From Naegleria gruberi (lineage: Eukaryota): a DNA stretch of 64,000 nt. The notes beneath the pieces were generated by a model, which worked only from the letters and a program-made list of their open reading frames with translations, was not told where the DNA came from and made no database searches. Where the stretch lies: the NCBI GenBank assembly GCA_000004985.1, contig GG738857.1; one strand, given 5' to 3'. Below are positions 1,255-63,153 of this stretch, in pieces (position 1 is the first letter of the stretch; every line of letters begins with the position of its first letter). The translations under genes and the position numbers were made by a program.

Positions 1255-4200
1255 CTATTTACGTCTTAAAAATTGCTCAGTGTATCTATAAATCATAATG
1301 GATGCACTCACATGCACATTCAAACTTCTTAATACACCCAACTGTGGAATTTCTACACAGGTATCCATCAATGACAGTAATTCAGGTGGCATGCCTTCCT
1401 TTTCATTCCCCAAACATATACAGCATCTTTCTGGGAATTCGTAATCTGGTAACATAACAGATGTGCTGGTTTGTTCTAGGCCTACGATTGTGTATCCCTC
1501 TTGTCTCTTTTGGGAAAGATATTGAGCAAGTTCTGTTGGTGGACAAGCTTCCACTGGAATCCAATGCTCGGCGCTCACAGAGATGGATTTAAACTCTTCC
1601 ATTTCCACCACGTTCATATGAGGTAAAACTAGTTTTTCAGCACTGAAAATTTCACAAGTTCTTGCAAGACCAGCCAAGTTGGGAATCTTGTCAATGAGTG
1701 AGGCAATAACAATGATAGATTGTCTCTTTCCGTTCTTGTGTTGGAGGAGAGATCTTGGATTGAGTTCATTTTGAATTTCCATCTCTGACCAAGGAACGAA
1801 TTTGGTTTGGAAGTTGAGAGTGGTGTTATCATCATCTTCAGAATGATTGTTTTCCTCATCTTCATTGTTTGTTGGCTCTCCCATTTGAACAATTTCCATT
1901 TCCGAATTATCAGTCAAGCCAAACTTGACGCGAAACTTGTCGATAATAGATGAATCGAATACACTTGCAATTCCCTTGAAAAACATGGTACTTGGATTCT
2001 TTCGTTCCTCAGCAGATTTTGATGGAGCTAAAAAGTCACTTGCCCATTCCTTGACCATTTTATCAGCCACATGAGAAACCACAGCTGATGCGGTAAAATC
2101 ATCAATAGATCCCAATGTTGGAATAACTTGTTCACGTTTCAACAATGGTTCCATAATTGCTGTCATACTACTAACACCAAATTGAGGTGTAAATAATTTG
2201 TCAACCAAGAGTGATGTCTTTGTAATACCATGACCAGTCAAGTAGAAGAGTGAATAGATAATCAAATCAAAATTGTCCTTAATTCCTCTCATATGATCAA
2301 TATTAGGATTGTCATTGATAAGACTAGTTCCTTCATAATAATAACTGAGATATAATTGCTGGGTGCTTTTAACAGGATCTACAACAATCAAGCTCTCATA
2401 CTTGCTCAACCACTTTTGAATATTTTGAGCAGAGTGTAAGAATTGATAGACTTGTTTCAAGAGTTCATTATTCTTCAAGATTTCTTGGCCTCTCTTGTTG
2501 GACATTTCTTCCATTCTATAAAGGACATTTCTCAACATGATATGTGTAATAACTCTAACAGTGTGATGATTAGAAGTGGCGTAGACAAACAATCCATTCA
2601 ACAACAAGGTAAGCCAGGTTTCCTTTTCAATATTCGAATCACTCAACAATAAATCTTCTGATGCATAAATGAGTACATTACCAACCAGTGAGACAACGGA
2701 ACCAATGTATTGTTGTCTCTGGTTAATATCCTCCCTCAAGTGATGCAACAGAGATTTGATGCCCATAGCTGGGAATTTGAGCAAAAGAACAAGAGCAAAC
2801 AATTCTTGAATCTTTCTTACAGATGGTGGATTATCTGAAAAGACGCAAGTCCAAACTCTACCCGTTCCATCCTCATCTAAAAGCTTCAAATCTTGAAGCA
2901 TTTCAAAATCAATCTTTGGAGCAAGAATTCCAAGCAATTGCCAAATACGAAGCTTTTTGTAATGCTTTGGAGATCCAGGCATACATGATTGTTTCTTCAT
3001 GTAGAATGATGAAATGTTAATATCAATAAGACTATCTGTCAATGCATAAAGGAATGATCTATCGAGAGTGGCATCAATCGAGTCAGCCATATAAAACATG
3101 GCAACTCTCAAAATCTTGACTGCATGGAACATTGAAGTGTAGAGTAGATTTCTACTGTAATTTGGTTTCTCTTGACTGAGAGCAAGGAATGACTTGAAAC
3201 CCTTCTCAGTTTCCTCATACTCGTCATCTTCAGAAACTTCTGGACAATAAAAGATAAGAGTCATGAAATCGTTCAACAAGTGCTTTCTGGATTGATCCCC
3301 TTGATAGTCTCTCCATTGCTTGGAACCCAACAATTTGATGAATTGTAATCCTAGAATGGTTCCTACCTTTACAACAGTCTTGGAATATTCATTAATAATC
3401 TTTTCAAAGAGTTGGGAAATTCCCAATTCAGCATACAATGAAGCATCCTTACAAATTTCAAAATCTAACATTATTTCAAAGAAGGATGCAATATTAACAT
3501 GTTCATTGGTGTATCTGTGTCCGTGAGAACCTCCTTCTGATCCTGTTGAGCCTTTCAAAATTCCCCAAGTACTATTAATGATCTTCTTGAGTTGGCTAGA
3601 TGAAATAAAGTCCATTCCCAATCTGTTTTGTACTAACATGTGATGAACAACATATTTCAATGCATTAACAACAAGGATGGTTGATTCGTTGGACATTATA
3701 TCCAAACAATCAATGCAATGTTCCAAAAATTGTGTGCATTCCTCCTTGCTGGCAAGCAATTCGCTAATCTTGGCATTTTCAACCTTGAGTGGTTGATGGA
3801 AGATGAGTGCAGCTAACGACTCCAAGCTTCCCCACTTCATATCAGAAATGCAGGCAATTAAAAAGTTTGGCTTCATGAGTGTAGTATCCAATTCTTCGTT
3901 CAACAATTGTTTGTATCCATACGAGCTGGATTTGATGGCATAGTAAGAGATGGAAGGCAATACATTGAACAGTTGCATGATTTGTTCTCCACTCCTAGTA
4001 AATGTCACAGCGAGGGCCAAGAATTTACAAACACACAAAGCCCTCAAAGTAATATTATTCACAAAGAGTGTGGCAGCACCAAAGTGTTGATTTCTCAATT
4101 CTCCTTCCTCTGAATCTCTTACAACAGTGTTTACAATGCTCTCAATCAAATCTTGTGAATGTAAACTGAAATAATTCAAGACTGAATTGTGCAATAGATT

Positions 4201-6957
4201 AATAATTGGCAAAAGGGACTCTCTTTCAAAGTATGCAAAATTGTCCTTATTCTTGAAAGCCATTTGTGAAATGGAAAGAAGAGCATTGATAAGGTTTTTA
4301 AATCTCTCATAGGAAGAGTACATGAAAATGGAATTATTTCCCTCTCTGAGAATTTGATGATAGGTCGACGAAATATCGCCCAAGCTAGTGCAAACTACAG
4401 ACATAATTTCCGATTTGATGTACATGACAACTTCTTCGAGAATACTTCTAGTGCAAAGGAGATTCATCAAGTTTTCTCTGAATAGAGCCAAGAGAATATT
4501 TTCTTCCTTGCAAGGACTATCTGCAAAGAGATTTGAGTTCAACAAGGAAGAAAGCAAATTCAAAAGTCTAATCTTGATAACAGGAGACATTTGGGTATGG
4601 GTATAAAGACTACCAAGTGTTCCAGCAAACTCACAACAATCAAACTTTAACAAGTTGCCAAGTTGCTGAGACATTTGATCCTTCTTCCAATCTATAAAGT
4701 ATAAAAGTGTAGCAAATCTTTCAGTGAAGAGATGAGCTTGAGTGTCTGATGTTGATTCATCAATAATCTTTCTCAAGAGACCTTGCATAAAGGATGTGAC
4801 ATGCTCTTGACTCTTACCTAACCAAGTTCTGATTTTTCTGGTAGTATCTGGATCTGAAAGATAGGCCAATGGATCAACACATGCTGCACTGCAGAAGAAC
4901 CTTCCCAGAATTTCCATGGTTTGTTCCGAATCCTCCTTACACATCTTTTCAAAACTAAAGCAATTTAAAATGATTTCCAAAGAGGTACTGTACATTCTCA
5001 GTTTCAACCAAAGACTTTGCTCAGGCACTTGTTGTAAGATAATCTTGTCCACAAGAAGAGCCAATTCTTCAACGCTTAAAATTTCCTCCTCACTCAATTT
5101 GAGTCTCGCAAGAATGATCAAGAAGTAGGATGTTGCAATTCTGGACCATCTAGTGGAGCCAAAATTTGTCAGGAAGGTGCAAATGCTCGACTTGTATTCA
5201 TCTATGCCCAGAGATTTACAAGCATTGAAATATGCTTCAAAAAAGAGGAAAATCTTCTCTCCAATATTATCCTTCTTGGTGGTGTAGAGTTTGCAATTTG
5301 AAGCACACTCCATGAATGATCCACAAATGAATGTATTATCCAATAGTAAATTCTTTCTCAACAAGGTATTTTCAAATTGAACCATGACATAATCTTGGAT
5401 GGTCTTGTAGGCATCAAGCATTGAGTGAACAGCCAATTTTACAACACCAAGATTGGCGTGAGTCATTGCTCTAATCCACAAAATCTTGACAAATCTCTGA
5501 TCAATGAAATAATTGTAATTTCTATCAGTTCCTTGTTTTGGCATGAGGTCAAAAACTAATCCCCAAACTGGGGTAATCAAGTGAATGGAGTGATTTCCTA
5601 GTGTTTCATAAATCATGAAAAATGTTTTCCATTGGTGTTGAAGAGAATCGTGGAGCTTGATCTCTACAATTTCTTCCTTAGGTCCTTTCTTGGCTTTTTT
5701 CTTCTTGGATTCTGTTTCCTTTGTCTTTTCAATTACATCCTTCGACACGAAAGGAGAGGACAAGTAGGAGGATATTGGTTCGGAATGTGAAATGTATGGA
5801 TAATTATTGGTGGTATCGAGAATGATTCTCTTGAGCAAGAATAGAGCTCTCTTTCCTGTAAAGTTTTCAGCATGCCACACAAGACATTCAGCAATGCTTT
5901 CCCACAACCACTCACAGGTTCTCATATCGACAATGAAGGAGTTTCCTTCAATTCTGAAAAATTCATCATACCACTGGCACAATAACATGTAAGATTCTTG
6001 AAGTAATTGATCGAACAGGGATTTTCTACTGGCCTTATCAACGAGAAGTGGAATGGAATTGTCAAGCTTTCCAGATTGATTCATTATTTGAATGAGGTCC
6101 AATATTTGGGTTAAATGTTCTCGGCTAGCTGCAGTCACAAAGTGTGGCATTAAATTTAAAAAGCAACATTTTCTCAAATGTTCGGCAACCTTCAAATCAA
6201 TCCTCCACATGGAAAAGGAAGTCAATGTAATTCCAAATCTCAAAACTCCTCTCTTTTCAATCATAATGTCGAATAATTCATTTCCAAACTGTTTCACAAC
6301 CTCATTGGAAGATAATTTTTCCTCATCCAACAAGTACTTAGAAAAGAGCATGACATTTTCCAATGTCAACTCATCCACCAATGATGATGAAGATTCATCT
6401 TCCAACAAGATTCCTCTCTTTAGTGATGCCGTACAAAACTTGAGTAAATCAAAATTGCCACTTGAATGATCCCTCATGAAACGAATGATAATTTGAAGAG
6501 CAGTGGCTTGTATCTTCTTATTCAATCGAACGGCCAACATGGCAGAAGTCTTCTTTTCGTTATAAATTGTCAATTCCTCTTGTGATAAAGACAATTCTGT
6601 ATGATGATTAACTGGTGAAGATAAAGATGATGATGATGAATGATAGGAAGGGAACAAAATTGTACTGCAAACATGTTCAATAAAGAAGGCTTGATGCTTA
6701 GCAATACTTTCCTTCAATCGTTCCTCCTTCATATAACAACTAGTATCCAATTGTAATTGTTCAAAGAGAACATCCAAAGTTGCAAGGCTATAATAAATTA
6801 ATTCAATTGTTTTGTTTGATGAGGCCGAGGATGGAATTTGCCATGATAATGATGAAGAATTTGTATTGTTACTATTGTTCAATATTGTTGTTGTTATTGT
6901 TGGAGTTTCTACAGCAACAGCCAATGATACTAATTGTTCTAAAACTCCATCATATTC
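1255..6957 (-). CDS. TARBP1/Trm3-like tRNA 2'-O-ribose (Gm18-type) methyltransferase, main exon
   Basis: A continuous ORF of about 1.9 kaa. The C-terminal ~150 aa carry the three SpoU/TrmH motifs: 'NLAGLARTCEIFSA', 'CICLGNEKEGMP' and 'VEIPQLGVLRSLNVHVSASIMIYRY'. This follows a very long helical N-terminal region, as in yeast Trm3 and human TARBP1. The frame stays open upstream of the listed TTG start, back to an acceptor at ~6958. Confidence 0.85.
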   Translation of the reverse strand, partial: EYDGVLEQLVSLAVAVETPTITTTILNNSNNTNSSSLSWQIPSSASSNKTIELIYYSLATLDVLFEQLQLDTSCYMKEERLKESIAKHQAFFIEHVCSTILFPSYHSSSSSLSSPVNHHTELSLSQEELTIYNEKKTSAMLAVRLNKKIQATALQIIIRFMRDHSSGNFDLLKFCTASLKRGILLEDESSSSLVDELTLENVMLFSKYLLDEEKLSSNEVVKQFGNELFDIMIEKRGVLRFGITLTSFSMWRIDLKVAEHLRKCCFLNLMPHFVTAASREHLTQILDLIQIMNQSGKLDNSIPLLVDKASRKSLFDQLLQESYMLLCQWYDEFFRIEGNSFIVDMRTCEWLWESIAECLVWHAENFTGKRALFLLKRIILDTTNNYPYISHSEPISSYLSSPFVSKDVIEKTKETESKKKKAKKGPKEEIVEIKLHDSLQHQWKTFFMIYETLGNHSIHLITPVWGLVFDLMPKQGTDRNYNYFIDQRFVKILWIRAMTHANLGVVKLAVHSMLDAYKTIQDYVMVQFENTLLRKNLLLDNTFICGSFMECASNCKLYTTKKDNIGEKIFLFFEAYFNACKSLGIDEYKSSICTFLTNFGSTRWSRIATSYFLIILARLKLSEEEILSVEELALLVDKIILQQVPEQSLWLKLRMYSTSLEIILNCFSFEKMCKEDSEQTMEILGRFFCSAACVDPLAYLSDPDTTRKIRTWLGKSQEHVTSFMQGLLRKIIDESTSDTQAHLFTERFATLLYFIDWKKDQMSQQLGNLLKFDCCEFAGTLGSLYTHTQMSPVIKIRLLNLLSSLLNSNLFADSPCKEENILLALFRENLMNLLCTRSILEEVVMYIKSEIMSVVCTSLGDISSTYHQILREGNNSIFMYSSYERFKNLINALLSISQMAFKNKDNFAYFERESLLPIINLLHNSVLNYFSLHSQDLIESIVNTVVRDSEEGELRNQHFGAATLFVNNITLRALCVCKFLALAVTFTRSGEQIMQLFNVLPSISYYAIKSSSYGYKQLLNEELDTTLMKPNFLIACISDMKWGSLESLAALIFHQPLKVENAKISELLASKEECTQFLEHCIDCLDIMSNESTILVVNALKYVVHHMLVQNRLGMDFISSSQLKKIINSTWGILKGSTGSEGGSHGHRYTNEHVNIASFFEIMLDFEICKDASLYAELGISQLFEKIINEYSKTVVKVGTILGLQFIKLLGSKQWRDYQGDQSRKHLLNDFMTLIFYCPEVSEDDEYEETEKGFKSFLALSQEKPNYSRNLLYTSMFHAVKILRVAMFYMADSIDATLDRSFLYALTDSLIDINISSFYMKKQSCMPGSPKHYKKLRIWQLLGILAPKIDFEMLQDLKLLDEDGTGRVWTCVFSDNPPSVRKIQELFALVLLLKFPAMGIKSLLHHLREDINQRQQYIGSVVSLVGNVLIYASEDLLLSDSNIEKETWLTLLLNGLFVYATSNHHTVRVITHIMLRNVLYRMEEMSNKRGQEILKNNELLKQVYQFLHSAQNIQKWLSKYESLIVVDPVKSTQQLYLSYYYEGTSLINDNPNIDHMRGIKDNFDLIIYSLFYLTGHGITKTSLLVDKLFTPQFGVSSMTAIMEPLLKREQVIPTLGSIDDFTASAVVSHVADKMVKEWASDFLAPSKSAEERKNPSTMFFKGIASVFDSSIIDKFRVKFGLTDNSEMEIVQMGEPTNNEDEENNHSEDDDNTTLNFQTKFVPWSEMEIQNELNPRSLLQHKNGKRQSIIVIASLIDKIPNLAGLARTCEIFSAEKLVLPHMNVVEMEEFKSISVSAEHWIPVEACPPTELAQYLSQKRQEGYTIVGLEQTSTSVMLPDYEFPERCCICLGNEKEGMPPELLSLMDTCVEIPQLGVLRSLNVHVSASIMIYRYTEQFLRRK

Positions 6958-7739: not shown

Positions 7740-10260
7740 ATGGATCATCGTCTTATCATGTGGATATGCTCACTAGGTTTCGTCTTACTTCTTCTGACAC
7801 AAACAGTTGCTGCAGTTGAAGTTTCGTATAACATTTCATTACTAGTAGGTGGTGGTAATCAATATGGAGATGGTTTGCCAGCTGATAAAATCAATCTCTA
7901 CAACCCAACAGCAATAGCTTTCAACTCCAGAGGAGACATGTATGTGGTCGATGCACAACTCCAAGTTATTCGAAAGATAGCAAAAGATGGAATCACCACA
8001 ACCATTGCAGGATTTCCACAAGATGCTGGTTACAATGGGGATAACATTCTAGCAAACAAAGCCAAGTTAAATTATCCTCGAGGTGTTGCGGTGAATGAAA
8101 ATGATGAGATTTTCATTTCTGATAGTGGCAATTACAGAATACGAAAGATTTCAAATAGTGGTATTATATCAACTGTGGCAGGAACTGGGGAGAATGGTTT
8201 TATGGATCATGTACTGGCTATTAACGGCAAGTTTGGAAATCCATCACATTTGCTTTATACGAATAGTACTCTCTATATCAATGACCAATCGAATAACAAG
8301 ATTAGAAAGTTGGATTTCACAACAGGCTCACTCTCAACAGTCGAAACCTATCCATTAGGAAAGAGTTCAAATGGCAAGGATTACTACTTTGCCAACTTTG
8401 CAGGTGTCATTACCAAGTTAGATTCGAATAGTGGAAATAGCACAAAAATTGGCTCAGAACTCTCACCAAATCTCTCCAGCTTTATTCAATACAGTTCTCA
8501 ATTGGACTGCTTCTTCTATTCCATCTATTCCGATTATAAGGTCTATAGACAATCTTTGACAGGAGTTGTCTCAACATTTGCTGGTTCCAATGAAAATTCT
8601 GGAAATATTGCAAATTTCAGTGGAGAGGGAAATCTTGCAGTGAATGCAACAATTGGTTCTCCAGCTGGTCTTTTGATTCGTGATGGATATTTGTATGTTG
8701 CCATGCAGACGAATAGTAGAATTGGGAGAGTGGAGCTCAGTAGTGGGATAATTACGACATTTGCAGGAGTGGATGCTAATAGTATGTTTGAAGGGGTGTT
8801 TGGAAATGCTACCTATTTATCAGATTCATCAGTTAGAAATATGGTATTCGAAACTGAAAGTTCCGTTTATTTTAGTGAATCAAACAAAATTCGAATGATT
8901 GATAAGAGAACGAGCTTGATCCGAACAATAGTCAAAACTTCTTCAGCTATCGAGTGTTTTACCTATTTCAATAATACTCTCTACTTGGTAATCAATTATG
9001 CAACCATATATAGAGTGGATTCGAATAATTCTTCTTTGCATCACTTTGCTGGTTCATTAGGAACTATTGTACAGAATCGACCTGCACTTGGAGTACAATT
9101 CATGCCAAAGGGCATATCATTCAATCAGAAAACCGGTGATTTATATGTGTCAGATTCTTTACAACATATCATTTCCAAAATTACTAAAAATGGTCAACTT
9201 TCAGTTATTGCAGGTAGTGTCAGTAATCCAGGATTTAGTGGAGATAATCAATTGGCAATTAATAGTCTACTCTATAGTCCACAAGACATTGTCGTCAATT
9301 CACAAAGCGGTGAAATCTTCTTTGTGGATGCATCGAATCAGAAGATTCGTAAAATAGATTCGAATGGAATTATTTCTACTCTAATAAGTGTTTCTTATCC
9401 TGAACATATGGAAATTAATCCATCAACAAACGAACTCTACATTGCATATGGTTGCAGAATTGTCAAATTTTCTGCTGTTAATGGAACCATGACAGGAATT
9501 CTTGCTGGAACTGGAGCAGCTTGTGCATATAATGGAGATAACATTCCAGCAATTAATGCACAGATAAAAGTTGACGGGATGACCATTAATTCCAATGGAG
9601 AAGTTTTCTTCATTTCAGAGGGTTCAAGGATTCGTAAAATTGATTCGAATGGAATTATTTCGACCATTGCAGGAACTGGAACTCTTGGTTACAATGGCGA
9701 TAATATTCCAGCAGTTACAAGTCAATTAAATAATCCTACTGGTATAGCAATTAGTCCAACAACTGGTGAAGTATTCATTTCGGATACAACTAATCTTAGA
9801 ATTAGAAAAATAGATTCGAAAGGCATAATTTCAACCATTGCTGGTACAGGAACTCTTGGTTACAATGGAGAAAATGTAGTTGCCACCAATGCTGACCTCT
9901 ATCATCCATCTGGTCTTTCATTCTTCAATGGAGAGCTCTATTTTGTTGCATATGATAGAATTCGAAAGGTTTCGACTGAGAATCTAGTTTCTACAATTGC
10001 AGGTGGAGACGGAGATGGAGGACCAGCACAATACTCAAATCTAGAACAGGTGAGATTCATGACCATGTCCAACTTGGGAGAAATGTTCATGGCTACTGGA
10101 AACAGAATACGAAAGATATCCACAACAGGTATCATTTCAACTGTGGCAGGAATGATTTATAATTTCGGATATAATGGAGATAGAAAGATTGCTACCACTG
10201 CCCACTTGTGGAATCCGATTGGAATTTCCCTTAATAGTGAAGGAGAAGTTTATATTGCAG
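7740..10260 (+). CDS. receptor-like kinase, exon 1: signal peptide plus NHL-repeat beta-propeller ectodomain
   Basis: N-terminal signal peptide 'MDHRLIMWICSLGFVLLLLTQTVAA'. More than ten NHL-type repeats with the recurring 'hhhI(A/S)DxxNxRIRKI(D/S)xxGIISTIAG' signature. The exon ends at a GTATGT donor at 10261, in phase 1. Confidence 0.85.
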
Positions 10261-10313
10261 GTATGTGATATTCGAAAGTCAAGTTTAATTTATTTTTATA
10301 ATAATTTGATTAG

Positions 10314-12037
10314 ATTTGAGCAATCATAGAATTCGAAAGGTTTCCAAGAGTGGAATAATTTCGACAATTGCTGGATTAGGAGCTGCTGGATATATCGATA
10401 ACGTACTCGCAACAGAAAGTCAACTAAATGCACCGAAAGGAGTTGTTGTTGCCCCAAGTGGTGAGGTGTTTATTGCAGATTCGAATAATAACAAAGTTCG
10501 TAAAATATCAACGAGTGGAATAATTTCTACAATTGCAGGAGGTGGAAGCATTGGTTTAACCGCTGAAACTCAATTGGCCACTTTGACAAAACTTACAGAA
10601 CCAAGCTCTGTAAATGTAAATTCCAATGGAGAAGTGTTAATATTTGATAGGAATAGTATTAGAAAATTATTACCTTTGGCCATAACCTGTTTTGGTAAAT
10701 TTGATTCAGAAGCATGTTCTGGAAAAGGAAAATGCATATCCTACGACAAGTGCGCTTGTTCAATAGAATCAGGATCTTCAACCTATTATGGACCTATTTG
10801 TGAAAAGTTTGATTGTAATGGAAAACCAATGAATGAATCAGGTGTGTGCTCTGGAAGAGGAAAATGTCTTTCACCAAATTCATGCTCGTGTCTGGATGGA
10901 TTTTATGGTTCCAATTGTGAGAATAGTTTGGTAACGCCTGGAACTAGTCGACAGGTAGCAACGAGTGAAAAGACAATTGGGCAGGATAATACTTTGGTTA
11001 TTGTGTTGGCTATTATCATTCCAATTATATTCATTGCCTTGATTGTTGTCATTGTTTTGGTCATTGTTGCAGTTGTGTTTTTCAAAAGAAAGCAGACGAA
11101 AGCAGGAAAATCTGGTTATCAAACAAAGGCCAACACTGAGCTAGAAACCTTTACAATTCCAGATTTTCCCTCAGAGGGAAGTTTATTTCTTCAACCCTTA
11201 ATGAGTATTTCGAGTACTGGTAAGAAGGAAGAGCCATTCAATCCACTCTCTAGATATTCCAACTTGGAGAAGGTGGGCCAAGGAAGTTTCGGCAATGTTT
11301 TCAAGGCATTTGATGAGAAAACCAAAACCACAAAAGCTATTAAGGTAATCAAATATTCAAACATTGATGAGTTGAACAATTTCATGAGAGAGGGAGCTCA
11401 ACTAATGAACGTCAATCATCCTAATATTCTGAAAGTGAATGAGTTTTTTATTGGACAGGATCAAATGTTGTGTATTGACACTGATTTTTATGAGAAGGGA
11501 GATTTGGTGAGATTGACCAACATTGATTTTGATTGTTCTGAAAAACTATTGAAGGAAATAATTCATCAAACATGTAAGGCATTAGATTATATTCATTGTA
11601 CCATGAATGTCATTCACAGAGATATCAAACCATCAAATATTTTCATTAAGAGTTTGGAGAATGATAGCATCCACCTCATTATCGCAGATTTTGGATTGGC
11701 CAAGTCAAATATGGCCTCAGTGATGCATTCATTTGCTGGAACTCCACTTTTTATGAGTCCAGAATTGGGATTTGGTGGAAAATATTACCACAATACAGAT
11801 GTTTACTCGTTGGGAGTAACTCTGTATCAGATAATGACAAAGGATACAGTGACATCTATTAGTCAACTCTACGTTTCAAAGGATCAAGAAACTGTAACTC
11901 AAATTCTTAGAAAAAAGATGAAGGAAGCAGAGTTATATTCTGATAAGGTAATCAATATTGTTTTATCAATGCTTTCTAAGGATAGTGTAACCAGACCTCA
12001 AGCTCAGGACATTTTGAATGATCCTTACTTTAGATAA
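10314..12037 (+). CDS. receptor-like kinase, exon 2: last NHL repeats, tenascin-type EGF repeats, TM helix, Ser/Thr kinase
   Basis: A 53-nt intron (10261..10313, GTATGT...TAG) restores the NHL repeat as '..YIAG|DLSNHRIRKV..'. Cys-rich EGF units 'CSGKGKCISYDKCAC..', 'CSGRGKCLSPNSCSCLDGFYGSNCE'. TM segment 'LAIIIPIIFIALIVVIVLVIVAVVFF'. Kinase motifs GQGSFGNV, AIK, HRDIKPSN, DFGLAK, SPE. Confidence 0.85.
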
Positions 12038-39565: not shown

Positions 39566-41719
39566 TCACAGATCTATCAACCAGGTTTGGTGTTTGTTTT
39601 TTTTGAGTTTTCTGTTTTCCTCTTCCAATATTTTAATTCTTTCCGAAAGTTTGTCAACATCCTCTAATATTTTAATTCGTTCCAGTAAAGAGTTCTCCTC
39701 CAATAGGTTAATTCTTTCTAATAGGTTGGTATTTTCATCAGAAAGTTTATCAACTTCCTCTGCAAGTTGAGAGTAGCTCCTTAATGGTGAGATTTTCTTC
39801 AATTCTCCAATTTCCTTTTCAATATTCAAAGTGATATCTTTGATTTCACCTTTCAAAAATTTCAAAATATTCTCAATGGTTAACTTGTGAGAATAACAAT
39901 TCAATCTTTTTGATGAATCTCTTTGAATCATGCTAATAATGCTTCTAATCAATATGTTATTCACTCCTAAATCTGGATTAATCGTTTCATTGATTAGTTT
40001 TTCAATTGCATAATGTAATTTCATTTCTCCCTCTGTTGTTGTTACAACTGTATAGAAATATTTTCCATGTCCACTAAAATATGGATACTTGTCATTATAT
40101 TTAGAGATATCTGAATCATTAACAAATCTTTCACACAATTGCAAAGGACAATTTGTTAATAATTTCAATAAAATACATCCCAATGAAAATATATCACACG
40201 AAATGGTAATTTGTCCAACATTGTGAGCAAGTTTTTCATCATCACCACTTTTCAATAAATCATCAGAATAATTATCATGTGAAACTTCAGGAGACATGTA
40301 TGCAAACTTTCCACGAGCAATTGTAATTGAATTACCTGTCTTGATAACTCTTGATGTTTCAAAATCAATAATTTTGTAATGATCTTGAACTTTGACAATA
40401 TTTTGAGGATCTAAATCTCTGTGCAAAATGTTGTGATCATGAATTGACTGAACTGATTTCAATACTTTGATAAATATTTCAAGAATTTCAATCAACTTTT
40501 CCTTCTTAATGAATCCATTTCTATAAATTTCACTTTCATTATTTCTTGAAATGTAATTTGATAATGATTCCTCTCCAAGTTCCATCACTGAATATAAATG
40601 ATTTTGAATAATTTCACAATCAAAACATTTGATCTTTCCTTCAATATCTGTTCTTTTCAATAAATTAATGGTTTCTTTTGTTGATTCTTCAGATTCCTCT
40701 GGATCATATTTTAATTTTAATGCCCTTAATGATTTGCTACTTTTGTGAAATACTTTGAATGCAACACCTTCACCTCCATATCCTAACAATGAAATAAAAT
40801 CATAATTATTTTTGAAATAATTATAGAAATAATTGAGAGCTTTGAATACTTTTGATAAATCTCCTCTCAGCTCATTATATTTACACAAGGTTTGTTTGTA
40901 ATTTTCAAATGTTTGCTCATTTTCAAACCACTTGTTGGCAAAATTCATAATTTCAGTAATTTCCTGTTTTGTATAAAATGATGTTTCGAAATTTGTTGCA
41001 ACTTGTTCCACAATATTCTTCAAATCTTTCATTCTTGTTGATTGACAGGGATTATCTTCAAGATATTTGTCCAATCTGAAACAAAATAAATAATAATTGA
41101 CTCTTTCTGGAAGAAGAGTTTCAGTGGATAATTCTGAATGGTTCATTCGTTTCAATATTTGGAAAATAATCAACTTTTCAACAAATACTGGTGTATAGAT
41201 AGAATTAAAATTGAATATTGTACCTTTTGGTGTTGGATTAAAGAGACTTGTTAATTCAATAGCATAATATAAATCCTTTTCATTCATAAATATTTTGGAG
41301 TATTGTTCAATTATATTAGTTGACAGCTTTGTCTGAAGATTAATGGATTCTTCAATTGTTTTGGTTATAGAGGGTGAGAACCTTCTTGCATTTACCTTGC
41401 TAAATTTAATTAATAAATAAATAAATATACTATCTTCTTTCAATGATGAATCAGCATATTGAAGTGCCTTTCCATGTTGTTTAACAGATTCCAATACAAA
41501 TTCTCTGTTTTTCCTCAATGATGAATCTGCATATTTAAAAGCATATCCATTTTGTTTGACAGATTCCAACACAATTTCTCTATCTTTTTTCAATGATGAA
41601 TCAGCATATTCAAGTGCATTTCCATTTTTTTTAACAGCCTCCAATATAATTTCTCTATCTTTTTTCAATGATGAATCAGCATATTGAAGTTCCAATCCAT
41701 TTTTTTTAACAGCATCCAA
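39566..41719 (-). CDS. DUF4116-like repeat + protein kinase + C-terminal coiled coil
   Basis: Four N-terminal ~25-aa 'AVKQNGxALxYADSSLKKDREIVLE' repeats. Kinase motifs 'LLGYGGEGVAFKV', 'ALKLK', 'HRDLDPQNIV' and 'DFETSRV' (DFE in place of DFG), and 'YMSPEV'. The C-terminus has heptad repeats 'LERINLLEENSLLERIKILEDV'. The listed start is TTG. The nearest ATG (41749..41747) is in another frame; see findings. Confidence 0.8.
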   Translation of the reverse strand: MDAVKKNGLELQYADSSLKKDREIILEAVKKNGNALEYADSSLKKDREIVLESVKQNGYAFKYADSSLRKNREFVLESVKQHGKALQYADSSLKEDSIFIYLLIKFSKVNARRFSPSITKTIEESINLQTKLSTNIIEQYSKIFMNEKDLYYAIELTSLFNPTPKGTIFNFNSIYTPVFVEKLIIFQILKRMNHSELSTETLLPERVNYYLFCFRLDKYLEDNPCQSTRMKDLKNIVEQVATNFETSFYTKQEITEIMNFANKWFENEQTFENYKQTLCKYNELRGDLSKVFKALNYFYNYFKNNYDFISLLGYGGEGVAFKVFHKSSKSLRALKLKYDPEESEESTKETINLLKRTDIEGKIKCFDCEIIQNHLYSVMELGEESLSNYISRNNESEIYRNGFIKKEKLIEILEIFIKVLKSVQSIHDHNILHRDLDPQNIVKVQDHYKIIDFETSRVIKTGNSITIARGKFAYMSPEVSHDNYSDDLLKSGDDEKLAHNVGQITISCDIFSLGCILLKLLTNCPLQLCERFVNDSDISKYNDKYPYFSGHGKYFYTVVTTTEGEMKLHYAIEKLINETINPDLGVNNILIRSIISMIQRDSSKRLNCYSHKLTIENILKFLKGEIKDITLNIEKEIGELKKISPLRSYSQLAEEVDKLSDENTNLLERINLLEENSLLERIKILEDVDKLSERIKILEEENRKLKKNKHQTWLIDL

Positions 41720-49573: not shown

Positions 49574-52500
49574 ATGTTGACAGGGAGCAGAGACTCTTCA
49601 TCAGTAGCTGCCGTTGACCAACAAGATCCACGAAGCCAAAAACAAGATATGACTTTCGAGTACACATATTTGATACAAGCACTATTGAATCAAAATCCAA
49701 AACTGAATAATTCTGAGTTTATTCAAGAGTTCAAAAAAAAGTTAGAGTCTTTTAAAGAAGATATTCAATCAGCCTACGAATTCACCGTTTCATTTAGTAA
49801 CTATTTAAAGAAGGGCAAGGATGGTACGTTGCACGAGTTGAAATCTTTCAAATTCTTGAAAGTGGCAAGTCACAAGCAACACTCATTTTTTCCAAAGAGG
49901 TTTTATGTAAAGGCAGTTGGTATTAATAATGATAGCACAACTGTATACCAATTACCAAAACTTATTGAGAGCAACAGAGTGTTTAGAAAATTTGACTTGA
50001 TGGATTTCATCAAAGTTCAGTTTTCTGAGAACAGCAAAGTTTTGGACATGATAACAATTCTTGACAAGAAATTCCAAGTTGTTGGTGGATCACAAAGCCA
50101 AATCAAAAAGGGATCTATTTACTACTATGACATCTCGAAACTGGAAACTGGAAAAACAGCCAATAGCTTGATGGATAAACTTGGAAAGTTCGATAATGAC
50201 TTTTTCAAGAAGATATCAAGACAAAGTTTAAATTTTACTCCTACTGTACGCATATGTACTCTTAAAAAGGATGATATTGTTGAAGAGGACGATACATATG
50301 CAGGGAATGGGTCCATATTATCGGATGGAATAGGCATGATATCTTATTCTTTTGCTGCTGAGCACTTGAAGAATGAAAAAGAAAACTTACCAACAGCATT
50401 CCAAGTAAGAATTGCTGGTTTTAAGGGGATGTTAACAGTGTATCCTGATGACATGCTAAAAAGAAAAGGAGTTAAAAAGAAAGTGATTTTGAGAAAAAGT
50501 ATGAAGAAATTTGAGTGTAACAAAGATGACAAATATGATCTAGAAATAGTGGCATCCACGAAGGAAGAGCCATCTCCCGCCTATTTTAACACACAAGTCT
50601 TTCTTTTGCTTTATTCACGCCGCATGAATTTCTTCTCTCAAAAGAAAATTGAGAATTATGATTATGATGTGATGAAAATACTGAAATCCCATTACGGTGA
50701 TGTTTTACCAAGTATTGATAGAGCGTCCTTTCACTCAAATCCTTTTTTGATAGATTTGTTGAGAAGTACACTAGCAAAGAAAAGAGATAATGGTAACATG
50801 TTGGTTACAGAAGGTATGACATGTTATGGTTTGCTGGATGAAACTAAAGAACTTAAAGAAAAGGAAGTTTTTGTAATGTTGGGAAACAAACATACCAAGT
50901 ACGCTAAACCAAATACCAAATTTTTAAAGAGTGGGACAAAGGTGTTAGTTTTCAGATATCCAGTATTGAATATAAATGAGATAAAGATGCTGACTGCAAA
51001 AGAACCTATCAATAATTTACAATTGAGTACAAATGATTGTGCAGTTGTTTTTTCAAGTGTATGTGCTGCATCTGATATTTCAGGTGACCTTGATGGTGAC
51101 AAGTATGTTGTTATTTGGGATGAATCATTATCCCTGATAGGAGATAATATTACAAAAAAAATTGAATTGAAAGAGAAAAAAAAGGAAGATAAAGAGGAGC
51201 AAACAGAGTATGAAGAAATTATACCAAAAACGAAAGTTACACCAAAAACACTTTCAGAAGCGTTCACTCATTTAATAATAGCGCAACAGTACGTCGGAAA
51301 GATAGTAACGACCTGGCAAAATACAATAATGAATGGAAGATACACATATCTAACAGAATCTAGAAAACTAGCCAAACAATTCCAAATTGCAATGGACTTT
51401 CCTAAAACTGGGATACTTCCAAACATTGATTTGCTGCACTCGCCTCCAAACTCTCCCCTAAAGACTGTAAGAAAGAGAATAGATTTTATGTACAATTTTT
51501 TGACTCCAATATCTGACAATTCTAAAGTTGCTAAAATACCACCAGATATCAAGCCTATTTTTGATAAATATATAGCAGAGATGGAACATTGGAAGTTGGT
51601 TTTGGGTATAGATGAAGTAGGAGTGATTACAAGAAAGAGTGTGTTTGAACCTATACAAGAGAAGTTTTCTAAACAATTAGAAGGAAAGTCAGTTCCAATG
51701 AGTTTGGGGAGTTTTTCATTGCTGATGAAACCATCTGGAAAGGCTAAAAAATCAAAATACTCCAGTTTTAAAACAATACTGGAGGGAAATTTCAGAGAAT
51801 TTGTCGAACAATATTTGAAAAGAATTTTTAATAATGGGAAGGAGGAATTGAAGTATTTACAAAATTCCCTTAAAGAAATTACAAACAACCAAATTCTTTG
51901 GAAATACATTGCTCAAAAGCCAAATCTATACCTCATTCTTACTTACCTTATAGATAGAAATAATACAATGATGAAATATGAACAGTTTGCTACAGATGAG
52001 TTGGTGTGGTCTTTTATCAAATATTGTATTTTAAAAGAATACCTTGTTCACGAAGATGAAAATCAGGCTGTTACTTACGAAAAGGAAGAGCCAAACCTGG
52101 AATACCTCCTTGTTGAATTTAAAAAAGATAACCATTTCACTACAGAAATAGATAAGTTGATTGGTTTTATTACTGATATTCCTAAAATGGATATATGGTA
52201 TCCGAGAATTAAGGAAGTTTGTGAAAAAGTTAATGTAGAATACATTCCATTTTCAGAATTACTTCCATTACCTAATGAAAAAATGCTCGGAAAAGGAATA
52301 CATGGAGAAGTGTTTCCAATGATGTTCCGATCAAAAAGAGTTGCTGTTAAAAAAGTTGAGTTTATATATCCAGATACTATTACTGGGTTTTTAGACGAGT
52401 TGGACCTTTTGGCAAAACTTAGAGGCCATGAAAATATAGCTGAATTGTATGCTGTTTCTCTTGATGGATACAATGGGTTTTTAATCATGGAATATTGTGA

Positions 52501-53128
52501 TTATGGATTATGGAATCACTATTTCAATAAGCAAAATAAGCAAAAACCAAAGATTAATTTTGACAAACTGCAATTCCTTTCATTACTCAATGATATAGCT
52601 AACGGAATGGAGTGGATGCACAAAAAAAATGTGTTACACAGAGATCTAACAGTCCATAATATTGTATTGCTAGAATATAAAGGAGAACAAGGACCATTCC
52701 TCAAAGCCAAGTTGATTGATTTCCATTTAAGTGTTTCCAAAGACTGGTCAGATGCTGAAGAGAAACTGAAATTCCTACCTCTTGAAAAATTAATCAAATG
52801 TTCTCCTGAAGCCATTAATGACAAATCAAATTATCATTTCCCAAGTGACGTTTTCATGTTTGGGAATATACTATGGGAAATATTGCACCGAGAGGAAATA
52901 TATCATCGGCTCAAATTTAAACATGCCATTCAATTGATTTTACAGGGAAAACTAAAACCTGTAACTGTAAAAATTGATTTAGAAGTTTTGAAAGTTTTGG
53001 AAAACTGTTGGAACCTTGATCCAGACCAAAGGCCTACATTTGAGAGCATAGTTAAGGAGCTTTCTTCTCTGCTTGAACATGAAAAGAAGAAACGAATGAG
53101 ATACAACCATTTCAATGCCTTAAAGTAA
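49574..53128 (+). CDS. RNA-dependent RNA polymerase (cellular RDR/QDE-1 type) fused to a C-terminal protein-kinase domain
   Basis: A single 1184-aa ORF. RdRP blocks: 'ILSDGIGMISYSFA', 'FQVRIAGFKGMLTVYPDDML', 'VLVFRYPVLNINEIKMLTA', the catalytic 'AVVFSSVCAASDISGDLDGDKYVVIWDE' (nt ~51060..51120), and 'QFQIAMDFPKTGI'. Kinase blocks (aa ~880–1184): 'LGKGIHGEVF', 'VAVKKV', 'HRDLTVHNIVL', 'LIDFHLS' (DFH in place of DFG), 'CSPEAI', 'DVFMFGNILWEIL'. Confidence 0.85.
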   Translation: MLTGSRDSSSVAAVDQQDPRSQKQDMTFEYTYLIQALLNQNPKLNNSEFIQEFKKKLESFKEDIQSAYEFTVSFSNYLKKGKDGTLHELKSFKFLKVASHKQHSFFPKRFYVKAVGINNDSTTVYQLPKLIESNRVFRKFDLMDFIKVQFSENSKVLDMITILDKKFQVVGGSQSQIKKGSIYYYDISKLETGKTANSLMDKLGKFDNDFFKKISRQSLNFTPTVRICTLKKDDIVEEDDTYAGNGSILSDGIGMISYSFAAEHLKNEKENLPTAFQVRIAGFKGMLTVYPDDMLKRKGVKKKVILRKSMKKFECNKDDKYDLEIVASTKEEPSPAYFNTQVFLLLYSRRMNFFSQKKIENYDYDVMKILKSHYGDVLPSIDRASFHSNPFLIDLLRSTLAKKRDNGNMLVTEGMTCYGLLDETKELKEKEVFVMLGNKHTKYAKPNTKFLKSGTKVLVFRYPVLNINEIKMLTAKEPINNLQLSTNDCAVVFSSVCAASDISGDLDGDKYVVIWDESLSLIGDNITKKIELKEKKKEDKEEQTEYEEIIPKTKVTPKTLSEAFTHLIIAQQYVGKIVTTWQNTIMNGRYTYLTESRKLAKQFQIAMDFPKTGILPNIDLLHSPPNSPLKTVRKRIDFMYNFLTPISDNSKVAKIPPDIKPIFDKYIAEMEHWKLVLGIDEVGVITRKSVFEPIQEKFSKQLEGKSVPMSLGSFSLLMKPSGKAKKSKYSSFKTILEGNFREFVEQYLKRIFNNGKEELKYLQNSLKEITNNQILWKYIAQKPNLYLILTYLIDRNNTMMKYEQFATDELVWSFIKYCILKEYLVHEDENQAVTYEKEEPNLEYLLVEFKKDNHFTTEIDKLIGFITDIPKMDIWYPRIKEVCEKVNVEYIPFSELLPLPNEKMLGKGIHGEVFPMMFRSKRVAVKKVEFIYPDTITGFLDELDLLAKLRGHENIAELYAVSLDGYNGFLIMEYCDYGLWNHYFNKQNKQKPKINFDKLQFLSLLNDIANGMEWMHKKNVLHRDLTVHNIVLLEYKGEQGPFLKAKLIDFHLSVSKDWSDAEEKLKFLPLEKLIKCSPEAINDKSNYHFPSDVFMFGNILWEILHREEIYHRLKFKHAIQLILQGKLKPVTVKIDLEVLKVLENCWNLDPDQRPTFESIVKELSSLLEHEKKKRMRYNHFNALK

Positions 53129-62154: not shown

Positions 62155-63153
62155 TTACAATTTAGAATTATTCTTATAAGCAGAATAAATTCTTTGAGTG
62201 GCAACAAATTCACCTCCCTTTTCTAATTTGATTGGTGTTTGAATTTGACCAACTTCAACACAGACAAACTTTTCATAATCCTCTGGTTTCATATCAGCCA
62301 TCTTTTTACACTTTTCTTGCCACAAATTCCACACCACTACATTTTGAGCAGTATTAGCTTGTTGATCAATGTGAATTTCTCTTGTAGTGTGTGAATCACC
62401 TGATTCATCAACAATAACACTACGAATATCATCCAACATGTCCAAATAAACTCTATCAACTTCTTCGGAAATGACAATAGGTTCTGATGGTGCAATAATA
62501 GTTGCTGACTTGTTGATCTTATCTACATATTGTACATGATGGTGATTATTGTGAACACCATCAATATGAGCCTTTCTAATATCTCCAATTCTGAAATAAT
62601 TGTGGAATGCAAAAGTGAAGGAACTAATAACATCCCAATTAGTTGATTGTCCATTAGTTGCATCCACAACCTTCAATGACATATCCAAATGATTATCAGT
62701 CAATGAAACAATTAAGAAAACATCCAATCCATCATAATCAGCCATCATTTTAGCAATATCCTTGTTTTGTCCTCTATAAGCTCCACTCTTGATCATTTTG
62801 AGTGTTCCTACACTTTCCAATGATCCAATCTTTTGATCAACAACTTCCCACAAGACATTTCTAGCAAATCCATGACTCATCGAGAGAGGTCCTTTATCAG
62901 AAAATTGTGGGAAACAAATAGGAACACCTCCTCTGATGGCTTTATCAGTAGCAAAGATTGCCTTCTCACTGACAAATATCACTTCATCATTTAAAGCTTC
63001 GGAAGAATTTGGTGATGTACAACGATAGCTTGTAAGATGAGCACCATGCAAATGAACATCACATTGGCTTTTACCATTTGGACTGGTAATTCGCAACATT
63101 TTCCATTCGGAATTGAAAGGACTGGCAAGAGTTTCAACCTTTGAAGAGGACAT
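62155..63153 (-). CDS. glucose-6-phosphate 1-epimerase (aldose-1-epimerase superfamily, YMR099C-like)
   Basis: 332 aa, ATG start. Family-typical blocks are present: 'HLHGAHLTSY', 'VIFVSEKAIF', 'KAIRGGVPICFPQF', 'HGFARNVLWEV', plus a C-terminal 'VVVWNLW' segment. Confidence 0.85.
   Translation of the reverse strand: MSSSKVETLASPFNSEWKMLRITSPNGKSQCDVHLHGAHLTSYRCTSPNSSEALNDEVIFVSEKAIFATDKAIRGGVPICFPQFSDKGPLSMSHGFARNVLWEVVDQKIGSLESVGTLKMIKSGAYRGQNKDIAKMMADYDGLDVFLIVSLTDNHLDMSLKVVDATNGQSTNWDVISSFTFAFHNYFRIGDIRKAHIDGVHNNHHHVQYVDKINKSATIIAPSEPIVISEEVDRVYLDMLDDIRSVIVDESGDSHTTREIHIDQQANTAQNVVVWNLWQEKCKKMADMKPEDYEKFVCVEVGQIQTPIKLEKGGEFVATQRIYSAYKNNSKL

Follow-up and report, generated by a model that had tools for sequence, protein, structure and literature searches.

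Two genes on a single stretch of Naegleria gruberi DNA encode proteins that carry EGF modules of the same cysteine pattern on otherwise different ectodomains, and the question raised by this locus is whether the likeness of the modules reflects a specific relationship between the genes. The stretch (64,000 nucleotides of contig GG738857.1, assembly GCA_000004985.1; here called the window) contains NAEGRDRAFT_65336, which combines an NHL propeller array with a kinase, and NAEGRDRAFT_65358, which combines RCC1-like repeats with EGF modules; both were already annotated and lie on one 573-kb scaffold. An original prediction, made from the sequence of the window, described the modules of the two genes as near-identical and took them as a sign of domain shuffling within a family of extracellular propeller–EGF proteins. 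The explanation considered likely here is that the two genes are unrelated, that the likeness of their EGF modules is driven by the consensus of the module, and that the genes encode a predicted type-I receptor Ser/Thr kinase and a predicted secreted RCC1–EGF protein, respectively.

Domain architecture of the two predicted proteins

The domains that the original prediction had placed beside the EGF modules were recovered by Pfam searches and a hydropathy scan, which gave NHL and TEN_NHL repeats, a transmembrane helix and a Pkinase domain in NAEGRDRAFT_65336, and RCC1, RCC1_2 and WD40_RLD matches in NAEGRDRAFT_65358. Residues ~30–960 of the kinase protein matched TEN_NHL (2e-61) and NHL (1.8e-27); exon 1 gave 94.4 bits for NHL (cut-off 20) and 208.4 bits for TEN_NHL (cut-off 27.1), and both families also exceeded their cut-offs in exon 2. 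Approximately 18 IRK-type blade motifs were counted in this array, 16 by scan and two by eye. An AlphaFold 2 model of the ectodomain (residues 1–1066, 42 aligned sequences) had a mean predicted local distance difference test score (pLDDT) of 76, with 393 residues above 90, and a predicted template modelling score of 0.42; it contained 67 beta-strands in four-stranded blades, with gaps at residues 203–246 and 428–444. When this model was compared with the PDB by Foldseek, the matches were ectodomains built of tandem six-bladed propellers (LRP2, LRP4, LRP6, teneurin 2, a teneurin-like protein, the BT4663 sensor, NHLRC2 and SOQ1). Their template modelling scores were low (0.17–0.24), since the model does not define how the domains are placed relative to one another.

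The signal peptide, the one transmembrane helix, the positively charged flank on its inner side and the distribution of N-glycosylation sequons (12 before the helix and one after) together indicate a predicted type-I single-pass topology for the kinase gene product. Between the helix and the kinase (11090..11250) lies a [DE]FPS[DES] motif (PDFPSEGSLF in NAEGRDRAFT_65336), which was also kept in the Naegleria fowleri protein FDP41_005179 and in the environmental relatives P0125 and P0130, and which may be a regulatory or docking motif.

The Pkinase match of 185 bits covered the whole profile (positions 1–263 of 263), while PK_Tyr_Ser-Thr reached only 116 bits. The catalytic motifs GQGSFG (the GxGxxG loop), AIK, HRDIKPSN, DFG and SPE are intact, and the best PDB matches of the domain were ULK3, CDPK, NEK1 and MST3, with E values of about 1e-25. 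From these motifs the kinase is most likely catalytically competent. The catalytic loop of receptor tyrosine kinases is of the HRDLAARN type; a receptor tyrosine kinase was ruled out, the HRDIKPSN loop being of the Ser/Thr type and the nearest solved relatives being Ser/Thr kinases.

A mode of action can be proposed for such a receptor. The signal peptide would send an ectodomain of ~1040 residues outside the cell, where ~18 NHL blades, probably arranged as three six-bladed propellers, would stand clear of the membrane on two disulfide-rich EGF modules serving as a rigid disulfide-bonded spacer. Binding of an external ligand or surface by the propellers may shift the oligomeric state of the receptor, and oligomerisation may in turn control the cytoplasmic kinase, which one transmembrane helix would join to the ectodomain and which would phosphorylate itself or substrates.

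The alternative that survives best, itself unlikely, is that NAEGRDRAFT_65336 is mainly an adhesion or matrix-binding molecule resembling a teneurin or an LRP, with a regulatory or inactive kinase and no ligand-activated signalling. The NHL and EGF ectodomains of teneurins and the propeller–EGF arrays of LRPs serve adhesion or cargo binding, and such a role would fit both the teneurin and LRP structures among the Foldseek matches and the presence of Naegleria NHL arrays on proteins with other C-termini, namely Naegleria lovaniensis C9374_010347 (NHL and EGF with a short tail only) and a protein with a GPS motif, several transmembrane segments and an RGS domain. However, all of the catalytic motifs are intact and the kinase domain is 56–69% conserved among paralogues and orthologues, and selection on activity is therefore favoured; adhesion and signalling are, in addition, mutually compatible.

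In the RCC1–EGF protein, the repeat region exceeded the Pfam cut-offs for WD40_RLD (169.3 bits, cut-off 150), RCC1_2 (109.3 bits, cut-off 22; 4.9e-32) and RCC1 (56.9 bits, cut-off 21.7; 3e-15). An RCC1-like domain folds as a seven-bladed propeller, and the repeats of NAEGRDRAFT_65358 probably form two propellers. Sequence P0121 begins at M12 of this protein, the second of its two candidate starts. No transmembrane segment and no hydrophobic C-terminus were found by the hydropathy scan; the protein would be secreted and, as it has no membrane anchor, would presumably act in the matrix, in adhesion or in binding. Since NHL and RCC1 repeats belong to different families, the two window proteins are not otherwise homologous.

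The C-terminal tail of the RCC1–EGF protein (61931..62083) begins like a fourth module (RCFSGNG…LC) that lacks the remaining cysteines, and the protein ends in a non-hydrophobic tail of 30 residues. The stop codon lies 69 bp from a convergent aldose-epimerase gene (62155..63153). A 99% identical allele of NAEGRDRAFT_65358 was present on an environmental ENA contig, where the aldose-epimerase neighbour is also found downstream.

EGF modules and the question of a specific link

A six-frame regular-expression scan of the window detected five EGF units and no others (Table 1). All five have six cysteines in the spacing C1-x(n)-C2-x3-G-x-C3-x5-C4-x-C5-x8-C6, with an invariant glycine before C3 and a long, variable C1–C2 loop of 8–16 residues. 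The Pfam family EGF_2 was matched with 29.0 bits in the kinase protein and 46.3 bits over three stretches in the RCC1 protein (gathering cut-off 22.1), and EGF_Teneurin with 18.0 and 27.6 bits, respectively (cut-off 24.3). The calcium-binding signature D-x-D/N-E-C was absent before C1 when the window modules were read by eye. In its sequence the window module is thus of the Pfam EGF_2, non-calcium-binding tenascin/teneurin type. The EGF fold has disulfides 1-3, 2-4 and 5-6 and two hairpins.

The two 25-residue units singled out by the original prediction, CSGRGKCLSPNSCSCLDGFYGSNCE in the kinase gene and CSGRGVCIAPDTCKCNSGYFGSRCE in the RCC1 gene, are encoded exactly where they had been placed (10847..10921 and 61721..61795), and both begin at the second cysteine of their modules. 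The C2–C6 spacing is the same in both units, and 14 of 25 residues are identical (49 of 75 nucleotides, or 65%); the likeness that had been described as near-identical marks no specific relationship between the two genes.

A specific and relatively recent transfer of an EGF module from one of the two genes to the other, by domain shuffling or gene conversion, would account for these 14 residues and for the identical cysteine spacing; it would also fit a BLOSUM62 score that is equalled or exceeded by only 3–6% of 2871 background modules, and the location of the genes 50 kb apart on one scaffold and in the same 64-kb window. Such a transfer is considered very unlikely in view of the background against which the two units were compared. 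A profile built from the five window modules was searched against 1.84 billion representative proteins. The pattern is far beyond the expectation for random sequence, and the best profile matches contained up to 63 EGF copies per protein; among 20 matches that were looked up, seven were N. gruberi predicted proteins, one was from N. fowleri and one was a 'tenascin-X' of Acrasis kona. The multi-EGF matches from N. gruberi included NAEGRDRAFT_51207 (4968 aa, ~60 units), NAEGRDRAFT_82303, NAEGRDRAFT_71475, NAEGRDRAFT_70916, NAEGRDRAFT_63569 and NAEGRDRAFT_49308. Six other N. gruberi proteins supplied 123 modules of the same cysteine spacing for comparison by identity, and 151 modules for comparison by BLOSUM62.

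The consensus of the 123 N. gruberi modules is CSGRGSCISPNNCSCQSGYYGSNCE. It was matched at 19 of 25 positions by the kinase unit and at 17 of 25 by the RCC1 unit, and both units are thus closer to the consensus than to each other. Every one of the 14 residues that they share agrees with the consensus, and at the six positions where the kinase unit departs from it, the RCC1 unit never has the same residue. By identity, 41% of the 123 modules were at least as close to the kinase unit as the RCC1 unit is, and 27% were at least as close to the RCC1 unit; among 2181 modules from 154 proteins the corresponding values were 18% and 29%. A column-frequency model gave 11.6 expected identities, with a probability of 0.15 for 14 or more, rising to 0.36 or 0.29 when one of the partners was fixed. 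When scored by BLOSUM62, 17 (11%) of the 151 N. gruberi modules equalled or exceeded the score of the pair against the kinase unit and 10 (6.6%) against the RCC1 unit, and between 93 and 164 modules in other proteins did so. As an independent standard of comparison, an EGF of human WIF-1 was identical to the kinase unit at 12 of 25 positions. The membrane-proximal EGF of FDP41_005179, an N. fowleri relative of the kinase protein, scored 89 against the kinase unit, which is below the score of the RCC1 unit; similarity at this level therefore cannot discriminate between relationships. Codon usage at the conserved residues is mixed, the codons differing at five of the 14, and the C1–C2 loops are unlike in both length and sequence. 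A recent exchange between the two genes at the DNA level was ruled out by the nucleotide identity.

These data suggest that N. gruberi uses this EGF module hundreds of times in its predicted proteins, and that each of the two units is a copy, close to the consensus, of this abundant heterolobosean module; as judged from the sequences, their likeness is ordinary and points to no special link between the two genes. The modules were essentially no more similar to each other than to generic ones, dozens of modules in unrelated N. gruberi proteins being equally close or closer. Of the proposed domain shuffling, the part that stands is that a promiscuous module sits on diverse ectodomains; the two genes share no common descent, and to call them a family is justified only loosely, by the module that their predicted products have in common.

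Several points weigh against the reading of two unrelated genes with a consensus-driven likeness. The BLOSUM62 global score of the pair was 100, which lies in the top 3.2% and 5.7% of the 2871 modules; on this measure the likeness of the two sequences is above average, even if both simply lie close to the consensus. The backgrounds had been gathered with the profile of the window modules themselves, which biases them towards similarity. That the ectodomain of the kinase protein forms three six-bladed NHL propellers is only probable, and its EGF region was modelled as short beta-hairpins at low confidence (pLDDT below 50). The AlphaFold 2 model of the RCC1 protein, calculated from 12 sequences and left out of fold claims and fold searches, had a mean pLDDT of 42.9 and was moderately confident only at residues ~600–780; short beta-hairpins were also present in its EGF region (pLDDT about 40–67). 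A word-indexed search returned only four matches to this protein at E ≤ 1e-10, a number that is no proof of absent orthologues in other Naegleria species. The function of the RCC1 protein is the weakest part of the explanation because the structure model is poor and the relatives are few.

Relatives, gene models and comparison with known systems

The combination of NHL, EGF, transmembrane helix and kinase had been called an uncommon architecture, and a search for further propeller–EGF proteins, with or without a kinase, had been advised. Such genes were found in N. gruberi, N. fowleri, environmental reading frames and other protists. The full order of signal peptide, NHL, EGF, transmembrane helix and kinase was identified by Pfam and hydropathy in two N. 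fowleri proteins, FDP41_005179 (1437 aa) and FDP41_013523 (2266 aa), and in two N. gruberi proteins, NAEGRDRAFT_70916 (2807 aa, 13 EGF modules) and NAEGRDRAFT_49308 (2167 aa), as well as in Naegleria-like open reading frames (ORFs) of environmental origin. The kinase domains of the family form one clade with 41–80% identity, in which NAEGRDRAFT_70916 is closest to NAEGRDRAFT_65336 (69%), and they share only 20–28% identity with the kinases of an RCC1–EGF–kinase protein and of another EGF–transmembrane–kinase protein; beyond the clade, scores in the kinase search fell from above 250 bits to 129 bits. Within the searches made, this predicted architecture is a multi-gene family of Naegleria only. 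The large Naegleria paralogues have 10–13 EGF modules followed by ~1000 residues before the transmembrane helix, whereas NAEGRDRAFT_65336 has two modules adjoining the helix.

Three N. gruberi models of ~285 aa (P0126, P0128 and P0129; NAEGRDRAFT_31119, NAEGRDRAFT_33549 and XP_002677979.1) consist of the kinase only. Their sequences begin within the juxtamembrane region and fall into the clade described above, with 50–56% identity to the kinase of NAEGRDRAFT_65336, and they may be truncated gene models of further receptor kinases. The kinase of the environmental P0130 is 74–76% identical to those of P0128 and P0129 and follows a propeller–EGF–transmembrane ectodomain, which is a suggestive hint only of NHL and EGF exons upstream of the kinase-only models. 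In N. gruberi P0062 (NAEGRDRAFT_67572, 2103 aa), a long NHL array was followed by a GPS motif (PF01825, residues 1542–1581), several transmembrane segments (residues ~1606–1925) and a C-terminal RGS domain; by these predicted domains it is the same type of NHL sensor on a receptor resembling an adhesion G-protein-coupled receptor (GPCR) with RGS, a different output.

RCC1-like propellers with the same type of EGF module and a transmembrane segment were also found in other protists (P0383 and P0347, from EukProt), and a metagenomic protein, P0338, has the order RCC1, EGF, transmembrane helix and kinase. The kinase of P0338 is only 24% identical to that of NAEGRDRAFT_65336, which points to an independent fusion. 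In these three proteins, as in NAEGRDRAFT_65358, there is a signal peptide or an ectodomain, and EGF_2/EGF_Teneurin modules come after the RCC1-like propeller; the three have 9–13 modules and a transmembrane segment, NAEGRDRAFT_65358 three modules and no anchor. The RCC1 region of NAEGRDRAFT_65358 is highly divergent.

The translation of the two spliced exons of the kinase gene is identical (100% identity over 100% of 1414 aa) to XP_002679520.1, which is labelled 'predicted protein' in the annotation, and the two-exon model of the original prediction is thus confirmed by the annotated protein. The join of the exons restores an NHL blade motif (...EVYIAD|LSNHRIRKV...) that fits the repeat consensus obtained by alignment. 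Exon 2 by itself forms one unbroken ORF with NHL repeats, EGF_2, a transmembrane helix and kinase, its Pfam domains scoring above the cut-offs, and the architecture is therefore independent of the intron call. That the architecture is an annotation artefact, in which a secreted NHL protein (exon 1) has been fused to a separate kinase gene (exon 2), is most improbable. In its favour, the exons are joined through a single predicted intron of 53 nt, and the annotation gives kinase-only models for three N. gruberi relatives. Against it, all four parts lie inside the uninterrupted exon 2, the splice is canonical and in frame, exon 2 opens without a signal peptide or ATG (the listed ORF starts with TTG), and the domain order recurs in N. 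fowleri, in two further genes of N. gruberi and in an unbroken ORF of 653 aa on an environmental Naegleria-like contig.

Table 1. Features of the two genes in the window and the basis on which each was located
Feature	Coordinates	Strand	Basis or remark
NAEGRDRAFT_65336, predicted type-I receptor Ser/Thr kinase, 1414 aa	7740..12037	+	2 exons
Exon 1 of NAEGRDRAFT_65336	7740..10260	+	
Intron of NAEGRDRAFT_65336, 53 nt, GTATGT...TAG, phase 1, within an NHL blade	10261..10313	+	sequence reading; annotated protein agrees
Exon 2 of NAEGRDRAFT_65336	10314..12037	+	
Predicted signal peptide, ~aa 1-25	7740..7814	+	hydrophobic aa 5-28, Kyte-Doolittle scan; cleavage presumed
NHL beta-propeller array, aa ~30-960, ~17-18 blades, split by the 53-nt intron	7827..10672	+	Pfam, motif count, AlphaFold 2, Foldseek
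EGF module 1, kinase gene; six Cys, 5-residue insertion in C5-C6 loop	10688..10804	+	regular-expression scan and alignment; below Pfam cut-off alone
EGF module 2, kinase gene; nearest the membrane, holds the compared unit	10814..10921	+	EGF_2 29.0 bits vs 22.1
Single transmembrane helix, aa 1068-1097, then KRKQTK	10994..11083	+	hydropathy maximum 3.85 over aa 1061-1102; basic C-terminal flank
Ser/Thr protein kinase domain, aa 1155-1413	11255..12031	+	Pfam Pkinase 2.3e-54
NAEGRDRAFT_65358, RCC1-like repeats and EGF modules, predicted secreted, 999 aa, single ORF	59087..62086	+	identical to XP_002679532.1
Predicted signal peptide region, hydrophobic aa 12-38, start M1 or M12	59087..59197	+	hydropathy scan
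RCC1-like repeat region, ~13 WG/G-N-x-x-G blade motifs (by eye)	59204..61561	+	Pfam
EGF module 1, RCC1 gene	61574..61684	+	regular-expression scan, alignment
EGF module 2, RCC1 gene; holds the compared unit	61694..61795	+	best EGF_2 stretch aa 876-902
EGF module 3, RCC1 gene; long C1-C2 loop	61805..61930	+	regular-expression scan, alignment

The window modules are part of a large expansion, the named members of which come from Naegleria and Acrasis. Their best sequence matches in the PDB were the EGFs of WIF-1 (E 8e-08 and 6e-07), HHIP and SREC-I; HHIP has a propeller and two EGFs, and its EGF pair was among the best matches of the EGF region of the RCC1 protein. The modules resemble those of EGF_2 (PF07974) and EGF_Teneurin (PF23106) in the core C-x3-G-x-C-x5-C-x-C-x2-G-[YF]-x-G-x2-C, and differ from tenascin and teneurin EGFs in being single or in threes rather than in long arrays, and in the length and variability of the C1–C2 loop.

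Three known systems were considered for the kinase protein, and membership was ruled out in each case. Mycobacterium tuberculosis PknD is a bacterial single-pass Ser/Thr kinase that has its kinase domain at the N-terminus and a single six-bladed NHL propeller at the C-terminus. NAEGRDRAFT_65336 resembles it as a membrane Ser/Thr kinase with a predicted extracellular NHL beta-propeller sensor, but has ~18 blades, EGF spacers, a signal peptide with type-I topology and the reversed domain order; this order, the EGF modules and the eukaryotic host rule out a PknD-like protein. Teneurins are type-II proteins with a YD-repeat shell, an FN-plug and TTR domain and a C-terminal toxin-like domain. The kinase protein shares with them the TEN_NHL match, a sub-threshold EGF_Teneurin score and the Foldseek matches, and in both the EGF modules lie next to the membrane with the NHL propeller distal; it differs in its type-I topology, its cytoplasmic kinase and an NHL array that is three times longer. 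No Pfam matches to the YD shell, TTR, FN-plug or Tox-GHH were found in the kinase protein at E ≤ 0.1, and a teneurin was ruled out by the absence of a YD shell and toxin domain, by the topology and by the C-terminal kinase. LRP2, LRP4 and LRP6 combine tandem six-bladed propellers with EGF modules and were top structural matches of the ectodomain model. Unlike in the LDLR family, the propellers of NAEGRDRAFT_65336 are not individually separated by EGF modules, and Ldl_recept_b/YWTD (PF00058) gave no Pfam match in the kinase protein; LDLR-family membership was ruled out on this account, the resemblance being at the level of the fold only. In its presumed working, NAEGRDRAFT_65336 is like the known systems only through its propeller and EGF ectodomain.

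The best matches of the NHL ectodomain outside Naegleria were long bacterial NHL or 'YvrE-like' surface proteins, which ranked above most eukaryotic matches with 26–34% identity over ~65% of the query and E values down to 0. An old transfer, or scores driven only by the number of repeats, are candidate causes.

Neighbouring reading frames and implications for Naegleria

Recognisable domains were also present in other ORFs of the window. The 1184-aa ORF at 49574..53128 (+) has an RNA-dependent RNA polymerase domain (PF05183, residues 121–622, E 2.5e-68) and, at its C-terminus, a PK_Tyr_Ser-Thr kinase domain (residues 902–1163, E 3.8e-40), an unusual fusion. On the opposite strand, the 717-aa ORF at 39566..41719 (-) combines DUF4116 repeats (E 1.8e-39) with a protein kinase domain that lies after them (E 1.5e-24). 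The 1889-aa ORF at 1255..6924 (-) has a C-terminal SpoU-type RNA methyltransferase domain as its sole Pfam match (residues 1737–1879, E 7.9e-28), and no domain was recognised by Pfam in its first ~1700 residues.

Full-text literature searches returned no description of Naegleria NHL/EGF receptor kinases or of secreted RCC1–EGF proteins. The secretome of N. fowleri includes 'Tenascin family' proteins (Liechti et al. 2019, PMC6831594), and a Naegleria pangenome paper describes a sensing repertoire of GPCRs, histidine kinases, cyclases and 265 kinases, receptor kinases being unmentioned (PMC9928731).

The sharing of one EGF module by two extracellular proteins is a textbook case of domain promiscuity and in itself matters little. 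A by-product of modest value is a small, uncharacterised family of predicted NHL/EGF receptor Ser/Thr kinases in N. gruberi and in the pathogen N. fowleri. It is proposed tentatively, and with rather less than even confidence, that Naegleria may have type-I receptor Ser/Thr kinases of its own, with NHL arrays on EGF stalks, independent of those of animals and plants, which would sense prey, substrate or other cells and would form part of a modular toolkit. If this is correct, the NHL sensors would be long, bacterial-like arrays, the ectodomain would have converged in design with those of teneurins and LRPs, and the same sensor would be wired to other outputs, for example in NAEGRDRAFT_67572, as a toolkit undescribed in the literature searched. 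If the proteins are surface receptors, they would be candidates for the recognition of prey, substrate or host, and would add a further case of receptor kinases arising outside animals and plants.

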